Origin: Flavobacteriaceae bacterium
Lineage (GTDB): Bacteria > Bacteroidota > Bacteroidia > Flavobacteriales > Flavobacteriaceae
DNA length: 64,000 nucleotides
Direction of reading: 5' to 3'
NCBI GenBank assembly: GCA_018402385.1
Contig: JAGYJA010000005.1
Span: forward strand, 1 to 64,000
Under the pieces are notes generated by a model, which saw only the letters and a program-made list of their open reading frames with translations, ran no database searches and was not told where the DNA came from. Positions 49,817-59,729 of this stretch are shown here, piece after piece (within the stretch, counting starts at the first letter, position 1; each line of letters starts with the position of its first letter). The position numbers were made by a program, and so were the translations under genes.

Positions 49817-49884
49817 AAAGTGGATGTATTCCTAAGTGTACACCTAAAACCATCCAAAACTTACTATTTAGCAATCTGCCTTAA

Positions 49885-49953
49885 AACAAAAAAAGCTCTA
49901 CGCACAAAGGCGAAAAGCTTCTCATCGGCTCTATCCCCAAGTTTACTTGGGGA
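49885..49953 (-). repeat. Degenerate copy A of the tRNA-Asp 3'-flank/terminator module
   Basis: AAACAAAAAAAGCTCTACGCACAAAGGCGAAAAGCTTCTCATCGGCTCTA..CCCCAAGTTTACTTGGGGA, ~90% identical over ~69 nt to copies B and C. Confidence 0.7.
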
Positions 49954-50012
49954 CCTTTCCGCCTTCCTTCGAACAATTGAACCTTTTCATTAACGTTCAC
50001 AAGATTACTTGG

Positions 50013-50032: not shown

Positions 50033-50296
50033 TTATTTTTTAAGAATGTTTTTAGGCGACTTAATAAGTTGTTGGATTTGAGAATGGCTATATTTTTTTA
50101 AAACTTTTTCTCTTATTAATGCTAGTTTTTTTGTTTCAAGGCATTCAATATATATTAATTCCCAAGGCCCTTTGTTCTTGGTATAGTTGCTCTCGTTTTT
50201 ATTGTGGGAGATTATCCTTTTATATGGGTCTGTTGAATACCCCCTATAATATTTAGAAGAATTTTGACTAAAAATTATGTAAACGTAGTGTTCCAT
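50033..50296 (-). CDS. Small GIY-YIG nuclease-family protein
   Basis: YVYIIFSQNSSKYYRGYS...R...E (GIY-x10-YRG); 87 aa. Confidence 0.7.
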   Translation of the reverse strand: MEHYVYIIFSQNSSKYYRGYSTDPYKRIISHNKNESNYTKNKGPWELIYIECLETKKLALIREKVLKKYSHSQIQQLIKSPKNILKK

Positions 50297-50309
50297 TCGG
50301 AACTAATTT

Positions 50310-50441
50310 AAACAAAAAAAGCTCTACGCACAAAGGCGAAAAGCTTCTCATCGGCTCTACTACAAGCCTTTCCCCAAGTTTACTTGGGGACAACACAACA
50401 TCTTGACGGCTACTGAGCGTAGTCGAAGTATGCGGTCTGGA
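50310..50441 (-). repeat. Copy B of the tRNA-Asp 3'-flank/terminator module plus 9-nt tRNA 3' stub (island distal junction)
   Basis: 131/132 nt identical to copy C except CAAAGG versus AATAAT. Ends in CGGTCTGGA, the reverse complement of tRNA 3' end TCCAGACCG. Confidence 0.8.
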
Positions 50442-50448
50442 AGTTTCT

Positions 50449-50906
50449 GTAGCTGAGATATATTCAGCTAACAGATTTCCTTCTAAATCAAATTGGAGCA
50501 CTGGTTTTTTTCTGTTATCCTCTACTTTGTAATTCAAATACAGTTTAAAACTCCAAAAGAAGTCTTTACAACTTTTGTTTTTTCCCAAACAAGTATTGCT
50601 TATGGTTTTTTTATCTGCATTGACTGCATTGGCTACACTTTCTAGGGAATCATACTCAGAAACTAAGTTTTCATCTAAATCATACTGATAGACTGATTTT
50701 TTGAACCCTCCACCAACATCCCTGTTATATCCTTCTTCCTTACTGTTGTATTTAAAAATATACTCCTTTTCTTTTTCAGCTAAGTTCAAACGATTTTTTA
50801 GTTCTTCTTCAAACTGATGATCTCTGACTTGTTTTAATATATCAGCATAACCTGCTTCATCAACCTTAAAGGCCTTATTACAATTAGGGCGAATAATTTC
50901 ATTCAT
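50449..50906 (-). pseudogene. NUMOD1-repeat DNA-binding protein, 3' end truncated by the island boundary
   Basis: Two NUMOD1-like repeats (VYQYDLDENLVSEYDSLESVANAVNADKKTISNTCLGK; VLQFDLEGNLLAEYIS). The ORF has no stop of its own and reads through repeat copy B to 50268. Confidence 0.45.
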
Positions 50907-51106: not shown

Positions 51107-51547
51107 TCAATCGATAATCATTAGAAATTCTTCTGGATGGCTAAGATAGTGGTCTATTTCTTTTAATTGATGAATTTTACTTTTCAGCCCAATGAGCTCA
51201 TGTAAAAACGCATTTTCAGCTTTTAAACTTGAATGATGCATTAGTTGTATGGTATGCATGCCCCTTTTTTCGTAGTGTAAACAAACTGCCTTATTCTCAT
51301 TGATTTTTTCTAAAAAAGCATCAATAGTTCTGGTATTAAACGTGCTTTTAATTGCATTGAATTGTTTTATTAAATGGGCTATGCGCTTTTTTCTTGAGTT
51401 GATGCCTTGTTTAAAATACCATGACTGCCCATCAGGATCTTCAAGCTTTCGTTTTAAGATGGCATACTCCATGAGAAGGCCAGCCAAACTCGAATGGTTT
51501 TGCTTTTTTACAAATAAGGCTTCTAACTTTTTAGCATCTAAAGGCAT
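51107..51547 (-). CDS. Hypothetical protein (island)
   Basis: 146-aa ORF predicted helical; no recognised domain. Confidence 0.3.
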   Translation of the reverse strand: MPLDAKKLEALFVKKQNHSSLAGLLMEYAILKRKLEDPDGQSWYFKQGINSRKKRIAHLIKQFNAIKSTFNTRTIDAFLEKINENKAVCLHYEKRGMHTIQLMHHSSLKAENAFLHELIGLKSKIHQLKEIDHYLSHPEEFLMIID

Positions 51548-51675
51548 GTTTGTGTCGTTTATATTTTACTTGAAAATGTACTACAAAAACATAAAATTGT
51601 AAAAGGTGAGATTAACATATTAAAATTTCGGGTAACAGCGTCTTAATAAAAGCTGCTATAAGTTCAAATACTATT

Positions 51676-52440
51676 TTAAGATTTTGTTAAATACTTGTTT
51701 TTAAGATGTTTATCCCTATAGTCTAGGAGGTTATCAATTTTTTCTTTCCAGTTTGTTGGTAAGCTTGGCTCTTTCCATTCAATGTCATTATACCATTCAG
51801 GTGCAAATAAGTTGTTAGATTCACCTATTCCTATTAAATTATTACCATATAAATTTAAATGACGTTTATAGAAACATTTTTTAACGTTTATCATTTGGTC
51901 AGTTGGTTTGGCAAAACCCTTAGGAATTAATACAACATTAGATGCAGACGTAAAAAGAGAATATGGTTTGGTAGAATGATCAAAATTCTCAAAGACTTCC
52001 TTTTCTAAATCTCTTTCACTTTCCTTGTGACCAAACACATGTGCTAACTCAAAATAATTCAAACCACTTTGTATCCAACTACCACTAGAATAAGTCTTAT
52101 TTAGAGACAAATAAGTCCATAAATGCCTTGGATAAGTATTATCATTAAAAATTGTTCCGTCTTTTTCATAAATATTATTTTTCCATCTTTTTAGATGTTT
52201 TTTTTCAATATTAATAGGTCTTCGAATCCCTGGAAATATACAATCTGAGCCTTCGTAAAAAAAATCATCAAAATTCAATTTTGGGTGACAAAACCCCTTA
52301 AAGCTTTCTTTAAAGTCAATATTTCTTTCTGAAATATATTTTACAATTTCAGGGTGTATATGATGTGTGACTAGACCTAATATTATTGCTAATTCCCTTT
52401 CAACTTCTTCAGACTTATTTTCAAATTTAAAATTTTCCAT
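51676..52440 (-). CDS. Hypothetical protein (island; 8 bp downstream of the DUF2779 gene)
   Basis: 254-aa ORF with HxxxH-like ELAHVFGH segment; no family recognised. Confidence 0.3.
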   Translation of the reverse strand: MENFKFENKSEEVERELAIILGLVTHHIHPEIVKYISERNIDFKESFKGFCHPKLNFDDFFYEGSDCIFPGIRRPINIEKKHLKRWKNNIYEKDGTIFNDNTYPRHLWTYLSLNKTYSSGSWIQSGLNYFELAHVFGHKESERDLEKEVFENFDHSTKPYSLFTSASNVVLIPKGFAKPTDQMINVKKCFYKRHLNLYGNNLIGIGESNNLFAPEWYNDIEWKEPSLPTNWKEKIDNLLDYRDKHLKNKYLTKS

Positions 52441-52447
52441 ATTTATT

Positions 52448-54433
52448 TTATTCTATTATTTCTTTCAAATGCTCAAACACCATCACCATTGCTAAGGTAT
52501 CTAACTCACAATACTTCAATAGGGCATCGCGCAGCTTACCTCTTTCTAAATCGCTCATATCAGTATATTGGGTTAACCCGTAAGCGGTTAAAGCGGCACC
52601 ACCATTATTGATTTCTTCAATATCACTTTTACGCTCAAAATCCGGATCCCAATCTTTAAACGGTTTATCTAAAGATTTATAAGGATCTTCTATTTCACCG
52701 TCTTTTATACGCAACCACTCGTGATCACTCGGAAAATTCTCACTCGTCATATTAATGTCTGCAATCGGTTGACTGTACTTTTCTTTGATGAATTCAGAAG
52801 TTTTGAAAATAGCCGGCAAAATAGCCTTAATGGAATTACTCCCTTTGGTATGTGGGTTGTAGTAATAGGCTTTGATTACTTCACAAAGGTCAATCATGCC
52901 TCTTTCGGGTTGCCAAAGTTCGCCTTTGTAATCCTTGTCCTTTGGTGGCGTGGTCAATGTCTTAATGAAGTTGATTAAGCTTTCTTTATCTGGCTCAGTT
53001 GAAGCTTCCAATTGCCGTTTGACTTGATTTAAGGTAGAATTTTCATAGGGCGAAAACTGAAACACAGAACCGTTGTTTAATTCTAAGGCTGCTTTTAGTG
53101 CTCTTATAAACTCAAAATTGGGGAACTCACCGGGGTTCACATTAATAAATTCTTTAGCGTGTTCTATACGTCCATCTTCATGGTAGATATGGTGAGAAAA
53201 TTGAAATACTACTTTTTCATAAGGATGCTGACCTTTATAAAAAGGGAGAGCCACTGTAGAAGCTTCAAAGTCAATAAAATTATAAGGCGGTGTCCAAGAA
53301 GCCATTTCACTTTTCAATTCTTGATCTAAAATTTCAAAAGTGAAATTATCAGGGTCTAATGCTTTCTGTTTTTGTAAAATTTGCCTTTCGTAAAGCGACC
53401 AACCATTCAAAACCTGTTTTGATTCACTTTTTGGTTGTAATTGTTCATCATTTATGTCTTCTAATTTTAGGACATTAAATTCATTGAATCCTCTAAGTTT
53501 GGTGTGATGCAGCTTTGAGATTTCAAAAGCATTTGGTGCTTTAAAATCTTCTTCTTTCCAACCTAATTGCTTTTGAAAACATTCTTCAAAGCCTGATTTT
53601 TTATCTTTTGAGGCTGCATCTGTTTTAAACTCACAATGCTTGCATTTTCCAAAGTTGAGGGGATAACCAAAATAGCGGTCTTCTAGATAGGCTTTAGATA
53701 AGACTTCAATAGCATCTTCAAATTCATAATCTCCTAAAATGCGATGTTCTCCTGTTTCAATTTTAGTAATGATCTCCGAGACATCTTTAAGGGATAAGAC
53801 CGAGTCTTCTGGTAGGTTTAACTGAGCTAATTGGTCTTTCTTTATATATATTCCAGTCCTACTATTACTGTTCTTTTTAATTCGAAACATTTGGTTTAAT
53901 CCATCTACAGATGCTGTTTTAAGTTGGTCGGCTAGCATTAAGTAGGGCTTGACACTAAATTGTGGATGTGCTTTTTCTATAACGTATTTTTGAAAAGCCA
54001 CATCAAACAAATACAAACTCCAATCAGAGTTATATTTCACATCCTTCTTCTTATCCCCTTCTTTAAATGACTTGGCCTTCACTTCAATTAAATTGATGTG
54101 ATTGCCTTTTTTCTCTAAAATATCAACACGGATAAACAAATTATTGTATTTAAAAGCAGCCTCATAAATCACTACATTCTCCTTTTGCAGTTGTTCATTC
54201 GTTTCAGCTACTTTTTGTTCATAATCATAATGGGCAGATTTATCATCATCAACTAAATAACCACCAGGGTAATGCATACGTGCTAATTCTTCTACCTGAA
54301 AGCCGCCTTTAGCCAAAGCTTCTAAAAACGGATTATTGTTTTTTTGATTAGCATAGTCATCTTTCTTGGTGTAAAACAATTTATTAGGGCATTCAAGGCC
54401 TAATTTAAAATATGATTTGGTTAAGTATCTCAT
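52448..54433 (-). CDS. DUF2779-family predicted nuclease: N-terminal PD-(D/E)xK (RecB/Cas4-like) domain plus C-terminal RNase-H-like/DEDDy-like domain
   Basis: MRYLTKSYFKLGLECPNKLFY start; FIRVDIL...NLIEVKAK (D...ExK); later FIDFEAS (DxE) and KYCELDTLAM (YxxxD). Confidence 0.5.
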   Translation of the reverse strand: MRYLTKSYFKLGLECPNKLFYTKKDDYANQKNNNPFLEALAKGGFQVEELARMHYPGGYLVDDDKSAHYDYEQKVAETNEQLQKENVVIYEAAFKYNNLFIRVDILEKKGNHINLIEVKAKSFKEGDKKKDVKYNSDWSLYLFDVAFQKYVIEKAHPQFSVKPYLMLADQLKTASVDGLNQMFRIKKNSNSRTGIYIKKDQLAQLNLPEDSVLSLKDVSEIITKIETGEHRILGDYEFEDAIEVLSKAYLEDRYFGYPLNFGKCKHCEFKTDAASKDKKSGFEECFQKQLGWKEEDFKAPNAFEISKLHHTKLRGFNEFNVLKLEDINDEQLQPKSESKQVLNGWSLYERQILQKQKALDPDNFTFEILDQELKSEMASWTPPYNFIDFEASTVALPFYKGQHPYEKVVFQFSHHIYHEDGRIEHAKEFINVNPGEFPNFEFIRALKAALELNNGSVFQFSPYENSTLNQVKRQLEASTEPDKESLINFIKTLTTPPKDKDYKGELWQPERGMIDLCEVIKAYYYNPHTKGSNSIKAILPAIFKTSEFIKEKYSQPIADINMTSENFPSDHEWLRIKDGEIEDPYKSLDKPFKDWDPDFERKSDIEEINNGGAALTAYGLTQYTDMSDLERGKLRDALLKYCELDTLAMVMVFEHLKEIIE

Positions 54434-54463
54434 GCTTGCAGCTTAAAATTTATTTCAGATGTA

Positions 54464-54943
54464 TTATCCATTTAGTTTAAAATAATCTAAAATGGCTTCC
54501 CAATTCGGGTAGTTATTGAATTTGTTATTGATGTAATCCCAACCAAAATGAAGGTGCGTTCCCTTAAAATTGCCTGCGCCGTTAGCTGTTCTATCATCGA
54601 TTAAATAGTCGCCAATCAGTAAATCCTTTCTGTGCGTAATAATCAATTTCTTATGAAAAATGTCCCCAAAATGTTCTTCAATCCAGTTGCGCTTGTGCAT
54701 CCATGCGGTAGGATTGTCCCAGGGTGCTGTAGTTAAAACAAATAGGTCGTATGTATTGGATAAATACAGTTTACGAATAGCTTCTTTTGCACCTGGAACT
54801 ACTTCCAAATTTGCAAAAATGCCATGAATATTGTCAGGATTATCTTTATACTTTAAATAATCTGACTTAGGATGAGTCTTAATCGCCTTTGAAAAATCAG
54901 CTAGGACTCCATCCATATCAATGTAAATAATCGGTTGATTCAT
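54464..54943 (-). CDS. HAD-superfamily 5'(3')-deoxyribonucleotidase (NT5C-like)
   Basis: IYIDMDGVLADF HAD motif I; 159 aa typical of NT5C. Confidence 0.65.
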   Translation of the reverse strand: MNQPIIYIDMDGVLADFSKAIKTHPKSDYLKYKDNPDNIHGIFANLEVVPGAKEAIRKLYLSNTYDLFVLTTAPWDNPTAWMHKRNWIEEHFGDIFHKKLIITHRKDLLIGDYLIDDRTANGAGNFKGTHLHFGWDYINNKFNNYPNWEAILDYFKLNG

Positions 54944-55466: not shown

Positions 55467-56597
55467 ATGATTTTTAAACAACTACTTTTAAGTTTAATAC
55501 TTTCTACACAGATTTCACCAAAAGTTTTTTTAGACGACAACGGAATTACCATAAGATGTAATACAAATGCTAAGGTAGGTGAAACTTATAATTTTAATGG
55601 AACACCTTATTTAATAGTTGACAATGAGCTATTAAAAAAATTAGTGAAAAACAAAGAGCCTCTAGAAAATGTTGTCACTACTTTTGTTACAGATATGAGC
55701 TACCTTTTTTATAAAAACAAAAATTTTAACGATAATATAAGCCATTGGGATGTTTCTAATGTTACCACTATGAGCTGGATGTTTGGTTTTTGCGAAGAAT
55801 TTAATGGGGATATAAGTAATTGGAATACTGAAAATGTAGAGTTTTTTAACGACATGTTTCATGGTACAAAAAATTTTAATGCAGACTTATCTAAGTGGAA
55901 TGTTAGTAAGGGTATACTATTTAATGGTATGTTTTTTGAAAGTTTTTTTAATAATGACATTAATTCTTGGGATGTTTCTAATGCTACTAATTTGAGTGGT
56001 ATGTTTGATAATGCTTTGGACTTTAATAAACCCTTATCTAATTGGGATGTTTCTAATGTTAAATTAATGGGAGGTATGTTTGCTGAAGCCATTAAATTTA
56101 ATCAAGATATAAGCATGTGGGATGTAGGTAAAGTTACTGATATGACAAACATGTTTAGAAATGCTGTTAAATTTGAATACGATTTATCATCTTGGTCACC
56201 AAGAATTTACATTACTCCAAAAAATTTTAATTTCAATAGCCCTGTTATAGGACCAGAGTTTAAAAAATCTACAAATATTTATTTACCTTCAATTATAACA
56301 GCAATATTTTTTACTCTAATTTATTTTTATAAAGTTTATCGTTTTAAGAGAAAAGAGGAATTTAAAGAGTATAATACCATTGTTAAGAAACTGATAAATA
56401 ACAAAAAAATTAATAATCATCACTTAACAAAAAGCGATTTGGATGAAATATTTGCCCTAACGCATTTAGAATATGAAAAACAAAAAGCCAAAAGATCTTC
56501 TTTAATTAAAGAGATTAATAATTACAAACCTGGATTAATTGATAGGGTGAGAGATCCAGAAGACAAACGCTCTTTTTTATATAAAATAAATTCTTAA
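55467..56597 (+). CDS. DUF285 / 26-residue-repeat surface protein (BspA-like) with C-terminal TM anchor
   Basis: About 8 tandem repeats of the form FNxDISxWDVSNVTxMxxMF, then a TM helix (IITAIFFTLIYFY) and a basic tail. Confidence 0.6.
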   Translation: MIFKQLLLSLILSTQISPKVFLDDNGITIRCNTNAKVGETYNFNGTPYLIVDNELLKKLVKNKEPLENVVTTFVTDMSYLFYKNKNFNDNISHWDVSNVTTMSWMFGFCEEFNGDISNWNTENVEFFNDMFHGTKNFNADLSKWNVSKGILFNGMFFESFFNNDINSWDVSNATNLSGMFDNALDFNKPLSNWDVSNVKLMGGMFAEAIKFNQDISMWDVGKVTDMTNMFRNAVKFEYDLSSWSPRIYITPKNFNFNSPVIGPEFKKSTNIYLPSIITAIFFTLIYFYKVYRFKRKEEFKEYNTIVKKLINNKKINNHHLTKSDLDEIFALTHLEYEKQKAKRSSLIKEINNYKPGLIDRVRDPEDKRSFLYKINS

Positions 56598-56971: not shown

Positions 56972-57018
56972 ACATATAATATGAATTTAAATGACCTAAA
57001 TATATGTTTTTACATATA
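56972..57018 (+). promoter_or_regulatory. Two tandem palindromes TATATG-N6-CATATA (putative HipB operators) upstream of the HTH gene
   Basis: 56972-56989 TATATGATAAAACATATA and 57001-57018 TATATGTTTTTACATATA, centres ~29 bp apart, 40-90 bp before the HTH start. Confidence 0.45.
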
Positions 57019-57058
57019 ATTTTATATATTTGTATTTAATTATATTTTTAAGCATATA

Positions 57059-57268
57059 ATGAGTGGTTTATCAGAATTTGTAAAGCAACGTAGAAAAAGT
57101 GTCAATCTCACCCAAGAGGAATTTGCCGAACGTGCCGGTGTGGCACTGACCGTTATACGTAAGATTGAACAGGGAAAGACCAACCTGAACATGGAAAAGG
57201 TAAATCTGGTATTGAACATGTTCGGACATGAACTGGCTCCCGTTCAGATAAAAAGACAGGATAAATGA
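57059..57268 (+). CDS. XRE-family HTH regulator (HipB-like)
   Basis: 69-aa ORF with an HTH segment LTQEEFAERAGVALTVIRKIEQGK. Confidence 0.75.
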   Translation: MSGLSEFVKQRRKSVNLTQEEFAERAGVALTVIRKIEQGKTNLNMEKVNLVLNMFGHELAPVQIKRQDK

Positions 57269-57600
57269 GACAGGGCCTTGTATATTATAACGACCATTTG
57301 GCTGGAACCATCACAGAAACAAATGATGGAGAATACATCTTTCAGTATGATGATAAGTATGTTGAGCAATATCCTAATGACTTTATCACCTTTACCATGC
57401 CCGTAGCCCATACTCCCTATAAAGACAAACGACTGTTCCCTTTTTTTGAGGGTCTTATACCTGAGGGCTGGCTGTTGAACATAGCCTCTGAAAACTGGAA
57501 AATAAACCGAAATGACCGCATGGGACTTTTATTGGCATGTTGCCATAATTGTATTGGTGCGGTGAGTGTTGAACCTATAATCAAGGAGAATGAAAGGTAA
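57265..57600 (+). CDS. HipA N-terminal subdomain protein (HipS-like)
   Basis: 111-aa ORF with a HipA_N pattern (LVYYNDHLAGTI...FQYDDKY...LFPFFEGLIPEGW); overlaps both neighbours. Confidence 0.7.
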   Translation: MRQGLVYYNDHLAGTITETNDGEYIFQYDDKYVEQYPNDFITFTMPVAHTPYKDKRLFPFFEGLIPEGWLLNIASENWKINRNDRMGLLLACCHNCIGAVSVEPIIKENER

Positions 57601-58531
57601 GTGCTTATATTGTTATGGTGAGACAACCGGTGGAAAGGACTTTCACGATAAGTGCTCTATGGCGTTTTTTGGGTCCACAAGTCCCCCAACAATAGATTAC
57701 TCCTTGAACCAAATGGACGAATTGGCCAAGAGCGTTGTGGAGCGCAGTGTTGCCGTTCCCGGTGTGCAACCCAAGCTGTCCATGTCACTAATAAAGGAAA
57801 CACGGGAAAAGGCCGACACAAGACTCACCGTGATTGGTGCGTTGGGCGGTGAGTTCATTCTAAAACCACCATCGGAGCTTTATCCTGAAATGCCAGAGAA
57901 CGAACACCTGACCATGAAAATAGCGGAACGCTTGGGAATAAAGACTGTTCCCTGTTCCCTTATCAGATTGGCATCAGGTGAACTCTCATATATTACAAAG
58001 CGGATTGACAGAACGCCTGATGGTAAAAAGGTCCATATGTTGGATATGTTCCAAATAACGGAGGCCTTTGACAAATACAAAAGTTCGATGGAAAAAATAG
58101 GCAAGGCCATCGACCTATACTCCAGTAATACGCTCCTAGACAAAGTCCTGTATTTTGAATTGGTCGTTTTTTCATTCATTACCGGTAACAATGATATGCA
58201 CCTGAAGAACTTTTCCTTGATAAAAGACCCTGTTGGCTGGACTTTGTCCCCTGCTTATGATTTACTGAACGCATCCATTGCGAATCCGGATGATGATGAA
58301 GAGCTTGCCCTAACACTTAACGGTAAAAAAAGAAAATTAAGGTCTGATGATTTTGTTGCTTTGGGCAAGGGAATGGAGCTATCGAACAAGCAGATAAAAG
58401 GGGCTTTCAAAAGAACCGTTGATAAGTTAGCTGTAATAACAGAATGGATAGATAAATCCTTCTTGTCGGCAGACATGAAAGGAAAATATAAAGAAATTAT
58501 ATCCTCAAGAACCAAGGCAATAGGGTTGTAA
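57590..58531 (+). CDS. HipA-like Ser/Thr kinase core (HipT-like) with N-terminal CxxC...H..C motif
   Basis: 313-aa ORF with VPGVQPKLS and DMHLKNFSL (HipA catalytic-loop type) motifs. Its ATG lies 10 nt before the upstream stop. Confidence 0.7.
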   Translation: MKGKCLYCYGETTGGKDFHDKCSMAFFGSTSPPTIDYSLNQMDELAKSVVERSVAVPGVQPKLSMSLIKETREKADTRLTVIGALGGEFILKPPSELYPEMPENEHLTMKIAERLGIKTVPCSLIRLASGELSYITKRIDRTPDGKKVHMLDMFQITEAFDKYKSSMEKIGKAIDLYSSNTLLDKVLYFELVVFSFITGNNDMHLKNFSLIKDPVGWTLSPAYDLLNASIANPDDDEELALTLNGKKRKLRSDDFVALGKGMELSNKQIKGAFKRTVDKLAVITEWIDKSFLSADMKGKYKEIISSRTKAIGL

Positions 58532-58558: not shown

Positions 58559-59485
58559 TTAACTTAGCAATGGGTTATCCCACCGCATAAACCAATTCAA
58601 AATAATCGTTCCGTTTGATATTGTCAAACACTTCCAGCCCGGTCCTATTGTTGAACAGGTCTCCAAAGTTCTCGGCGAGCATCTCCCAGCCCTGCATCCC
58701 GACCTCGTAAGAATTCGGAAGAGGTCTGATAGTATGTTTTTTTCATGCAAAAAAACGATTTCTTTTTTACCTGTTTTATTTTTAAAAGCCAAAAAGGGAT
58801 CTTTACCTAAGTATTCATTAACAATGACATATTTAATCACCTTTCTAAAGCGTTGAATTACCTTATTAATGGTACTTTGCTGAAAGCTTTTTTCAGTTAC
58901 CAAGTAGTATTGTAAATCATCTAAAAATGAACCTTTAAGTTGTTTTAATAAGATATCTGAGGTTTTAAATTTCCACTTGATAAAGCTTTCAATGTGAGTG
59001 TAAGTTTCTAAGTATTTACTGTATGTGACCTGTTGAATTTCTTTACCTACAAGGTTTTTGATGTGTTCGTTGTGTAAGTTGAAGGTAGCAAGAACTCCCA
59101 TTTCTTCAGTAGTACTTTCTCCTTTGTATTTAGAGAGGATATCAACAATTGTAAAGGAAGCTCCGGCTAGTTTTAATTTAAGGTAAGAATCTTGAAGCTT
59201 TTGCCTGATTAATGTGATGTTGTCATTAATATAATCACTGTCTTCTTGGTCTTTCGCAAACTGGCTATTAATATCCCAGTTTTCAGGTTTAATAAAGAGT
59301 CCTGTTGAGAATTCCTTAATATTTCTATCAACAGTAATTCTACAACGAATGGGGCACTTGCCAGATTTGTTGATTTTGGATTTTTGAATGACATACAAAA
59401 TTCCTAATGTGCTACTTTTCATACTTTTAGGTGTTAGAAAAGTGGGGCACTCGAAAATATTTTGGGGCACTAAAATGACTCCCAA
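58559..59485 (-). pseudogene. Tyrosine-recombinase/integrase remnant: N-terminal arm/SAM-like domains only, fused to an unrelated GC-rich fragment
   Basis: Bacteroidota-type integrase N-terminus (KSGKCPIRCRITVDRNIKEFSTG...). The catalytic domain is absent. The last ~60 codons are GC-rich and unrelated; the alternate frame ends ...NRTGLEVFDNIKRNDYFELVYAVG*. Confidence 0.55.
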
Positions 59486-59532
59486 AATTTATAAAAACCA
59501 TCCAAAACTTGCTTTCTAGCAGAAATGACTAT

Positions 59533-59664
59533 AAACAAAAAAAGCTCTACGCAATAATGCGAAAAGCTTCTCATCGGCTCTACTACAAGCCTTTCCCCAA
59601 GTTTACTTGGGGACAACACAACATCTTGACGGCTACTGAGCGTAGTCGAAGTATGCGGTCTGGA
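59533..59664 (-). repeat. Copy C of the 3'-flank/terminator module (native downstream region of the intact tRNA-Asp)
   Basis: CCCCAAGT-TT-ACTTGGGG perfect hairpin; AGCTTTTCGC..GCGTAGAGCT stem followed by T7 on the tRNA strand. Confidence 0.8.
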
Positions 59665-59729
59665 CGGGACTCGAACCCGCGACCCCCTGCGTGACAGGCA
59701 GGTATTCTAACCAACTGAACTACCAGACC
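59656..59729 (-). tRNA. tRNA-Asp (anticodon GTC)
   Basis: GGTCTGGTAGTTCAGTTGGTTAGAATACCTGCCTGTCACGCAGGGGGTCGCGGGTTCGAGTCCCGTCCAGACCG; cloverleaf with 7-bp acceptor stem and GTC anticodon; CCA not encoded. Confidence 0.9.

Follow-up and report, generated by a model that had tools for sequence, protein, structure and literature searches.

Proteins of the DUF2779 family (Pfam PF11074) are predicted to combine a Cas4-like PD-(D/E)xK nuclease domain with an RNase H-like DEDD(y) domain (Majorek et al. 2014; PMC3985635). The same two-domain architecture has been described for MMSYN1_0389 of JCVI-syn3.0, and the protein is quasi-essential in this minimal Mycoplasma cell (PMC13621843), which, for that organism at least, points to a housekeeping function in DNA metabolism. 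Neither a defense role nor an NT5C-type partner is reported for DUF2779 in papers on RNase H-like classification, JCVI-syn3.0 annotation, or a Mycoplasma bovis transposon screen. Likewise, these papers do not mention tight linkage between NT5C and nuclease genes. Among defense effectors, Upx is described as a dual-nuclease protein with dual PD-(D/E)xK domains (PMC13099982).

We examined a DUF2779 gene within a window of 64,000 nucleotides (contig JAGYJA010000005.1 of a Flavobacteriaceae bacterium). Four co-oriented open reading frames of 159, 661, 254, and 146 amino acids occupy positions 51107–54943 on the minus strand. Their tight packing and coordinates agree with the original prediction, whereas the intergenic gaps, from gene 1 to gene 4, are 30, 7, and 128 nt rather than 30, 8, and 129. 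Pfam searches and conserved residues also show that its domain calls were correct: The first gene (54464..54943) encodes an NT5C-type HAD phosphatase, and the second (52448–54433) a PD-(D/E)xK plus DUF2779 protein. The other two proteins, p254 (51676..52440) and p146 (51107..51547), indeed have no recognizable family in Pfam, NCBIfam, or PADLOC.

The 661-amino acid protein matches PF11074 over residues 386–534 (E = 7.7e-22, 78.3 bits vs. a cut-off of 23.3), and this domain is present in 120 of 120 DUF2779 homologs among the matches listed. With the NCBIfam UU173 model it scores 21 bits versus a cut-off of 225. The N-terminal half (approximately residues 1–300; 53534..54433, minus strand) has a Cas4-like PD-(D/E)xK nuclease fold and carries a four-cysteine motif. 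The C-terminal half (approximately residues 380–661 including the stop codon; 52448..53296, minus strand) corresponds to an RNase H-like DEDDy-type 3′–5′ exonuclease domain. The predicted structure is of moderate quality (pLDDT 74.5). In an alignment of 21 sequences, the RVD/IEVK triad (D104, E117, K119), the cysteines C15, C264, C267, and C285, and the FIDFE (D388, E390) and YCELD (Y641, D645) residues are all invariant. The features of DEDD(h/y) exonucleases are present, namely the ExoI DxE, an acidic ExoII residue, and the ExoIII (H/Y)x3-4D. Judging from motif position, the ExoII residue appears to be Glu (E464 in FSPYEN) and not the usual Asp. The four cysteines, one N-terminal and three C-terminal as in Cas4, probably bind an Fe–S cluster.

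MMSYN1_0389 keeps two Cas4 cysteines (PMC13621843), whereas the window protein has all four. The former is quasi-essential, whereas the latter is island-borne and has a conserved HAD phosphatase partner. Otherwise, the window protein has the architecture of DUF2779/PF11074 proteins, including MMSYN1_0389 and the Ureaplasma UU173 family, and it retains the D-E-K triad, the acidic exonuclease residues, and the Tyr-x3-Asp of this family.

The exonuclease domain differs from DEDDh and DEDDy exonucleases such as MrfB, Pol III epsilon, ERI1, TREX1, Cas2-DEDDh, and Cap18 in that it shares its polypeptide with a second nuclease. Cas4 normally occurs as a free-standing protein or as a fusion with Cas1. 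Unlike the Cas4 of CRISPR adaptation or solo-Cas4, the Cas4-like domain of the window protein is joined to a DEDDy exonuclease. The locus also lacks the cas1/cas2 genes and CRISPR array that accompany CRISPR-associated Cas4: No tandem-repeat array of CRISPR-like period occurs within the 64-kb window, and no Cas families were found among ten proteins scanned around the locus (Pfam, NCBIfam). Helicase-independent or multi-nuclease defense effectors, including Upx and those that follow the end-destruction logic of RecBCD/AddAB, likewise have two nuclease sites per polypeptide. They resemble the window protein in their defense-island-type setting and presumed DNA-end target. The window protein differs from them in its combination of Cas4-like and DEDDy domains, and in being without a helicase or a PADLOC system match.

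The NT5C protein (PF06941; E = 1.1e-19, 71.5 bits vs. a cut-off of 24.8) shares its Pfam family and HAD motifs I–IV with cdN/mdN-type 5′(3′)-deoxyribonucleotidases. Enzymes of this activity are also its nearest solved structures (3bwv at 9e-14; human cdN and mdN), and matches to PDB entries 3bwv, 2jao, and 4l57 fall between 1e-12 and 1e-14. The motif residues, D9/D11 (I, DMDGV), T71/T72 (II), K106 (III), and D116/D117 (IV), are invariant across 25 distinct DUF2779-linked homologs. The catalytic residues predicted for the two enzymes are present and invariant in both alignments. The active-site region aligns with that of cdN, and DMDGVLADF is common to both, with GIF in the window protein versus GFF in cdN. 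The cap is where the proteins diverge. The segment from motif I to GIF comprises ∼19 residues (22–40), versus ∼40–46 in solved cdN/mdN-type chains, and by alignment the cap falls short of those of 3bwv and 2jao by about 20–27 residues.

We compared 84 DUF2779 loci from a pattern-based scan that is biased toward relatives sharing 48% identity or more, most of them from marine Bacteroidota. Of the 75 loci whose upstream sequence is long enough, 28 carry an NT5C gene upstream of DUF2779. Paired NT5C genes sit 3–50 nt ahead of DUF2779, and 23 of the 28 pairs are on the same strand with a gap of <60 nt. DUF2779 and NT5C identities co-vary, from 94%/75% to 48%/45% (r = 0.93); many loci are near-duplicates, so these counts and this correlation do not represent independent samples. 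The paired loci are distributed over three separate clades of the DUF2779 tree, with a lowest DUF2779 identity of ∼48%. A different phosphatase appears in a separate clade, made up of L052–L055 and the second DUF2779 paralog of a Mesoflavibacter zeaxanthinifaciens island (L026), where DUF2779 is followed by a 59-amino acid gene and then by a NIF-type HAD phosphatase. In about 60% of related DUF2779 loci, a HAD phosphatase gene is not found next to the nuclease gene, which indicates that the nuclease can work alone.

The proposal that all four genes form one conserved unit is not upheld by this comparison. Only NT5C recurs across the 84 loci; p146 is found in six, and p254 in one besides the window. 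The complete set of four is confined to the window and L026, with 77%–81% identity for the first three genes and 59% for p146. The conserved unit is two genes, NT5C and DUF2779. Flanking genes vary among most DUF2779 loci, and the tRNA sites of the module differ (Asp in the window, Asn in L026, and Ala in L033). The pair moves between variable genomic islands.

The window copy lies within a decayed integrative island at tRNA-Asp. Direct repeats of 173 nt that are 88% identical flank a region of ∼9 kb. The left copy (50269..50441) keeps the last 10 nt of the tRNA-Asp 3′ end, and the right copy (59492–59664, minus strand) runs into an intact tRNA-Asp (59655–59729, minus strand; ARAGORN, Rfam), the two together spanning 59492..59729. 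GC content is 24%–34% over 50–57 kb versus ∼37%–40% in the flanks. A HipA-type kinase module is located nearby at 57059–58531. At the island end is a tyrosine-integrase remnant (58559..59485, minus strand; PF17293 at 2.3e-16, PF13102 at 2.1e-12) that retains only Arm-DNA-binding and SAM-like domains, with no catalytic domain found by Pfam. These features bear out the mobile-island context noted earlier for this DNA.

The two family-less proteins behave as passengers of the pair. The p254 gene is an independently mobile orphan gene that forms an exact intergenic insertion between DUF2779 and p146; it is an unrelated solo gene inserted in the spacer and not part of the conserved module. No structure in PDB or BFVD matches the fold of its product significantly. 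Identification as an HNH/His-Me finger or PD-(D/E)xK nuclease is not supported: no recognizable fold or profile match was obtained. The p146 gene, which encodes a conserved QSWYFK motif, is a lineage-specific accessory gene. It lies directly downstream of DUF2779 in L026–L028 and L030–L032, all close relatives. The only match for either protein is a weak PHROG match of p146 (2.6e-4). The wider p146 family comprises 167 representative clusters, all of ∼146 amino acids, and an HMM of this family revealed no additional copies in other DUF2779 loci. The product of p146 may act as a regulator or inhibitor. An alignment of the window, L026, L027, and L031 indicates that the 128-nt spacer ahead of p146 (51548..51675, minus strand) arrived with p254. 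A TAnnTTTG-like motif in this spacer, TATGTTTT, is also conserved in L026 and may act as a Bacteroidetes-type promoter that drives p146.

The original prediction knew of no named defense system that pairs these enzymes, and this remains so: PADLOC-DB 2.0 (systems to 2023) yields no matches for NT5C, p254, or p146 and holds no model for the pair, and no such system is named in the DUF2779 papers mentioned above. DUF2779 itself has only a marginal PADLOC match, to CARF_PDDEXK (E = 0.0025). Restriction-modification genes are among the variable neighbors of DUF2779 loci, and the 128 non-redundant neighbor proteins comprise, among others, type I and II methyltransferases, DRT reverse transcriptases, GmrSD, HEC-05/06, E1-E2, mad2, and WYL regulators. 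This defense signal is qualitative: a control set of p254 neighbors likewise matched PADLOC many times, in part through cross-hits of housekeeping proteins. A putative anti-phage role of the cassette is plausible.

We tentatively favor a mobile two-gene module that is predicted to degrade DNA ends, probably in defense. The role of the pair is predicted to be, most likely, the destruction of foreign or broken DNA. In the proposed mechanism, both heads of DUF2779 would attack DNA ends, with the 5′ strand as target of the Cas4-like domain and the 3′ strand as target of the DEDDy domain; these polarities are suggested by analogy with Cas4, RecE, MGME1, and DEDDh exonucleases. With one head acting per strand, linear or nicked DNA could be destroyed without a helicase. 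For the substrate of the phosphatase, we infer two options. NT5C family membership suggests that the enzyme might dephosphorylate released dNMPs and thereby prevent their reuse. Alternatively, the truncated cap and the capless NIF-type HAD phosphatase in another DUF2779 clade suggest that it might strip the terminal phosphate from DNA ends so that the exonuclease can engage. Phage T5 couples host-DNA degradation to a 5′-deoxyribonucleotidase, which offers a possible functional analogy to the pair. Biologically, the pair would most likely serve to restrict foreign DNA as it enters, whether phage, plasmid, or ICE, and would thus be a defense-type module. A more far-reaching version, which we regard as unlikely, is that NT5C-DUF2779 and NIF-DUF2779 constitute an undescribed anti-mobile-element immune module in which a capless HAD phosphatase would prepare or dispose of DNA termini or nucleotides to serve a helicase-free, two-headed exonuclease, and that, separately, p254 represents a new-fold family of solo DNA-acting enzymes. 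If true, this immune module would reveal the biochemical job of the quasi-essential minimal-cell DUF2779 gene, and the p254 family would be one that hitch-hikes across phyla, its members sitting at the ends of operons unrelated to one another.

Some of the same observations could be explained by an accessory module for DNA repair or end processing, in which the HAD enzyme cleans blocked, phosphorylated termini, so that repair or recombination can proceed from damaged ends or gaps that the two-headed exonuclease has resected. In its N-terminal domain, DUF2779 also resembles AdnAB, RecE, MGME1, and Exo5, an ATP-dependent DNA ligase and RmuC are encoded near DUF2779 in some loci, and the conjugative plasmid pPAES01 carries an SOS-response-associated peptidase gene close by. 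The shortened NT5C cap and the capless NIF alternative would also fit a macromolecular substrate. WYL-HTH regulators adjoin DUF2779 in 12 loci, and some WYL regulators control DNA-damage responses; however, they are equally common in defense systems, and PADLOC lists WYL as CRISPR-associated. Moreover, the genomic position is not conserved, and a location in islands at different tRNAs, next to recombinase genes, is unusual for core repair genes. L026 has two DUF2779 paralogs within 10 kb. We consider a repair role somewhat unlikely. A function that benefits the element and not the host is improbable. DUF2779 and the phosphatase would then help the mobile element to establish itself, for example through processing of its own DNA ends or degradation of DNA from the host or from competitors. 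Consistent with this, DUF2779 is found on islands and on 26 plasmids, and in L026 the gene is flanked by recombinase genes. On pPAES01 it lies among genes for H-NS, a thermonuclease, and a protein with a zincin-like metallopeptidase domain, a domain that occurs in ArdC-type antirestriction proteins. However, most of the plasmids are non-mobilizable and encode DUF2779 proteins that share only ∼24% identity with that of the window, and across 78 loci no association with genes for transfer or replication is conserved.

It is also quite doubtful that the four genes make up one integrated system with p254 and p146 as obligatory sensor, effector, or immunity subunits. They are adjacent and co-oriented both in the window and in L026, a contig identical in p254 (L110) has p254 followed by p146, and a 3123-nt contig appears to hold 89%–90% homologs of DUF2779 and p254 together. 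In addition, p254 begins 7 nt past the DUF2779 stop codon and is probably co-transcribed with it. Against this, the closest relatives, 93%–94% identical in DUF2779, are without p254 and have p146 beginning 9–12 nt past DUF2779; p254 occurs elsewhere as a solo gene in 25 genomes, with no DUF2779 neighbor and no conserved partner; and p146 is missing from every paired locus below ∼75% identity. Least probable, to the point of being very hard to credit, is that a prophage left behind an ordinary block of phage genes for nucleotide metabolism or replication. Phages commonly encode NT5C-like proteins (PHROG 420 at 7.6e-20, PHROG 2643 at 1.5e-11), two NT5C copies in L027 have a DnaB_C fragment between them, and one IMG/VR contig encodes a distant DUF2779 with 42% identity. 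However, tblastn of DUF2779, p254, and p146 against 50,697 phage records gave no match, p254 was not found in IMG/VR, and no phage structural or lysis families were found by Pfam and PHROG in the scanned island proteins or in the neighbor sets of related loci. The suggestion of a phage-derived system is not supported; NT5C alone has clear PHROG relatives.

The left end of the island also holds a chimeric remnant open reading frame (50268..50906, minus strand). It consists of a DUF2130 start, a NUMOD1 homing-endonuclease fragment in the middle (1e-11, Pfam), and a tail read from the tRNA-flank repeat, which the frame overlaps at 50269–50441. Its first ∼47 amino acids are 74%–79% identical over 47 residues to DUF2130 starts in L067–L069 and L072 (tblastn), and a DUF2130 gene (3.8e-86 to the Pfam family) lies downstream of DUF2779 in other loci.

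Four co-oriented open reading frames follow one another on the minus strand of the window, separated by gaps of 30, 7, and 128 nt. The first (54464–54943, 159 aa) encodes a HAD phosphatase that matches the Pfam family NT5C (E = 1.1e-19) as well as solved 5′(3′)-deoxyribonucleotidases, among them 3bwv (9e-14) and the human enzymes cdN and mdN. The second (52448–54433, 661 aa) matches the Pfam family DUF2779 (E = 7.7e-22). The third and fourth, called p254 (51676–52440, 254 aa) and p146 (51107–51547, 146 aa), have no family in Pfam, NCBIfam, or PADLOC, and p146 has only a weak PHROG match. The original prediction was right about the positions and motifs of these genes. Its interpretation, an undescribed four-gene nuclease/nucleotidase operon, stands in part: A comparison of 84 loci reveals that the pairing of phosphatase and dual nuclease recurs, but that the four genes do not form one unit.

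Both nuclease active sites of the DUF2779 protein belong to known types and are intact. Among 21 aligned homologs (55–94% identity), the PD-(D/E)xK triad D104/E117/K119, the cysteines C15, C264, C267, and C285, and the exonuclease motifs D388/E390, E464, and Y641/D645 are all invariant. The N-terminal half matches Cas4 structures (7mi4 at 11.6, 4ic1 at 9.7, and 8d3l at 9.6), and RecE, MGME1, Exo5, and AdnAB were also matched. A sequence-profile search of the PDB returned no result for this protein, and no record was found by exact sequence look-up. A Cas4-like protein could belong to a CRISPR locus, and this possibility was rejected by a repeat scan of the window.

This two-domain architecture is already known. 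DUF2779 has been classed with the RNase H-like 3′–5′ exonucleases and found together with the PD-(D/E)xK-like domain DUF83 (Majorek et al. 2014; PMC3985635), and a 2026 paper describes MMSYN1_0389, which is quasi-essential in a minimal synthetic cell, as a Cas4-like plus DEDDy protein (PMC13621843). The family is widespread, with more than 5700 matches in a single search. It has no experimentally established function despite that quasi-essential member, and these two papers and a Mycoplasma bovis transposon screen mention neither a tested function nor a phosphatase partner.

The 84 loci were fetched because they encode DUF2779 relatives (42–94% identity); they were searched with the window proteins, and their neighbors were clustered. 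Among the partners, only NT5C recurs widely. Of the 75 loci whose upstream sequence is long enough, 28 have it upstream of DUF2779, and in 23 of these 28 the two genes share a strand and are <60 nt apart. The identities of the two proteins fall in parallel, from 94% for DUF2779 and 75% for NT5C to 48% and 45% (r = 0.93). On the DUF2779 tree, the paired loci form three separate clades with a few apparent losses within them, and HAD motifs I–IV are invariant across 25 distinct NT5C partners. In another clade (L052–L055 and a second paralog in the Mesoflavibacter zeaxanthinifaciens island L026), DUF2779 is followed by a gene for a hydrophobic, probably membrane-bound protein of 59 aa and then by a 157-aa HAD phosphatase of the NIF type. 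The Mesoflavibacter island holds both arrangements, with the DUF2779–NIF copy (L026 1–2627) 8 kb upstream of the NT5C–DUF2779 copy. There is genetic linkage between DUF2779 and an intact HAD phosphatase, and across all loci ∼40% have a HAD phosphatase within a few genes of DUF2779.

Two further arrangements were observed among these loci. Among the closest relatives, at L027 (8402–9970) and also at L028 and L030, the NT5C ortholog (94% identical) is cut to 115 aa. After it come a 208-aa DnaB_C-like fragment and then a second, full NT5C gene (75% identical) that abuts DUF2779. It seems that the phosphatase gene was locally duplicated or replaced. In one DUF2779 clade (L056, L085, L096–L099, L104, and L106), a trio consisting of 200-aa and 247-aa proteins without a Pfam family and a 449-aa ATP-dependent DNA ligase recurs within a few genes of DUF2779. 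These three genes may form a module of their own or may have a functional link to DUF2779.

The other two genes of the window have a much narrower association with DUF2779. The p146 family is real, since an exhaustive search yielded ∼146-aa proteins in 167 representative clusters. Its members follow DUF2779 in six loci only, every one a close relative, and an HMM of the family found no additional copy in the remaining DUF2779 loci, which rules out p146 as a general partner. In this comparison, the p254 gene is present only in the window, in the Mesoflavibacter island (which has all four genes), and on two short contigs. It is missing from four loci (L027, L028, L030, and L031) whose DUF2779 proteins are 93–94% identical to that of the window, and there p146 begins 9–12 nt past the DUF2779 stop codon. 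DNA alignment identifies p254 plus its 128-nt tail as an exact intergenic insertion. The real unit is a two-gene module of phosphatase and dual nuclease, carrying two passengers in the window. This module is a new combination built from known kinds of parts, and no description of it was found in the literature searched.

The p254 protein is a separate lead. Its family has 193 detectable members, with identities of 55–65% across Bacteroidota, Nitrospinota, Gammaproteobacteria, and Desulfobacterota and ∼40% in Planctomycetota and Chloroflexota. Among 25 genomic loci of p254, DUF2779 is never a neighbor and no neighbor family is conserved; housekeeping, transposase, toxin–antitoxin, and defense genes are mixed, and in 21 of 21 loci p254 has the same direction as the gene upstream of it. 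No copy was found in IMG/VR, GenBank phages, or PLSDB plasmids. His, Cys, Asp, and Glu are frequent among the 74 invariant positions, a pattern suggestive of a metal-dependent enzyme. The predicted structure is confident and has no significant match in PDB or BFVD. A PDB sequence-profile search gave nothing useful, and longer homologs, examined for domain fusions, gave no Pfam clue. A FELAH...SNVVLIP motif and the clean intergenic insertion raised the idea of an HNH-type homing endonuclease, which found no fold or profile support; no target-site duplication is visible.

How the two conserved proteins might work together can be outlined from their families. The Cas4-like head of DUF2779 would degrade DNA starting at 5′ ends and its DEDDy head starting at 3′ ends, and the two heads together would therefore destroy linear DNA without a helicase. 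The phosphatase could then convert the dNMP products to nucleosides, a role proposed because of its membership in the NT5C family. Phage T5 offers an analogy, as it couples DNA breakdown to a dNMP nucleotidase. Alternatively, the phosphatase may strip terminal phosphates from DNA ends. This option is raised by the NT5C cap, which is ∼20 residues shorter than in solved NT5C enzymes, and by the alternative partner NIF, a member of the capless HAD class, whose usual substrates are macromolecules. The recurrence of a HAD partner, NT5C in three clades and NIF in another, is a clue that the job of the nuclease involves end-cleaning or product disposal.

A defense-type role for the NT5C–DUF2779 module is a tentative reading, which we hold at slightly below an even chance. 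DUF2779 neighborhoods vary between loci, and a WYL-HTH gene adjoins DUF2779 in 12 of them; both observations count for defense. So does the makeup of the 128 nonredundant neighbor proteins, among which are type I and II methyltransferases, DRT reverse transcriptases, GmrSD, HEC-05/06, E1-E2, mad2, a type ISP enzyme, and WYL regulators. The PADLOC neighbor scan yields family tallies, so this signal is qualitative. Counted as against or neutral are the lack of a PADLOC model for NT5C–DUF2779, the presence of DNA ligase, RmuC, or an SOS-associated peptidase near DUF2779 in some loci, and the quasi-essential member in a Mycoplasma (PMC13621843). An accessory role in repair is the rival explanation, and we judge it less likely.

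The suggestion that the genes are phage-derived was not borne out, as DUF2779, p254, and p146 are all lacking from 50,697 phage genomes. Plasmids do carry DUF2779, in 26 cases. On one conjugative plasmid, pPAES01 of Prosthecochloris aestuarii (L113, 6989–8980), a DUF2779 gene (41% identical) sits among genes for H-NS, a zincin-like metallopeptidase-domain protein, an SOS-response-associated peptidase, and a thermonuclease. Few defense systems of marine Bacteroidota are known to have been tested experimentally. Should the pair prove to restrict phages or plasmids, a helicase-free "Cas4 plus DEDD" effector would join the defenses known from these bacteria.

The contig belongs to a Flavobacteriaceae genome close to Planktosalinus and Psychroflexus, and the four genes reside in an island next to a tRNA-Asp gene (59655–59729). 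A 173-nt segment, comprising the last 10 nt of the tRNA and its downstream flank (repeat plus tRNA, 59492–59729), has a second copy at 50269–50441 (88% identity) and a third, partial copy at 49846–49954 beside a pseudo-tRNA fragment. The second copy (B) retains only the last 10 nt of tRNA-Asp; after the third (C) comes a degraded tRNA-like piece in which the anticodon-arm sequence GTGACAGGCAGGAATTCTA is present. These copies suggest that tRNA-Asp genes once stood in tandem here or that the site was used for integration more than once. Related modules adjoin tRNA-Asn and a serine recombinase in the Mesoflavibacter island and tRNA-Ala in L033, so the module moves between islands.

The two main repeats enclose, in this order, a chimeric remnant ORF, the four genes, a DUF285/PARCEL protein, an HTH plus split-HipA module, and an integrase remnant. 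A GIY-YIG protein of 87 aa (3.8e-16), small and stand-alone, is encoded next to the chimeric ORF, between copies C and B. The chimeric ORF joins 47 aa of a DUF2130 gene start to a NUMOD1 homing-endonuclease fragment, and five other loci (L063 and L067–L070) have an intact DUF2130 gene downstream of DUF2779. The region (50033–50906, minus strand) appears to be what is left after a homing endonuclease inserted into the DUF2130 gene usually found after DUF2779. The DUF285/PARCEL-repeat surface protein (55467–56597, plus strand; 376 aa, 2.9e-57) is encoded divergently from NT5C, with 75-nt periodic DNA repeats and the lowest GC content of the window (24–27%). Similar genes occur upstream of DUF2779 in L102 and L105.

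The neighboring "kinase toxin module" consists of three genes (57059–58531, plus strand). The first encodes an HTH protein of 69 aa, the second a HipA N-terminal domain that stands alone (111 aa; Couple_hipA, 1.4e-25), and the third a kinase of the HipA_C family (313 aa, 7.6e-43). Genes two and three each overlap the preceding gene by a few bases. The layout corresponds to the tripartite HipBST toxin–antitoxin rather than to classical HipBA, and PADLOC matches the module to the candidate system PDC-M03A/B. In a scan for sigma-70 promoters and terminators, which is uninformative for Bacteroidota, the number of sites did not exceed that in shuffled sequence. The HTH gene is immediately preceded by an imperfect, AT-rich tandem repeat (56997–57060, periods 20 and 26), which may be an operator region.
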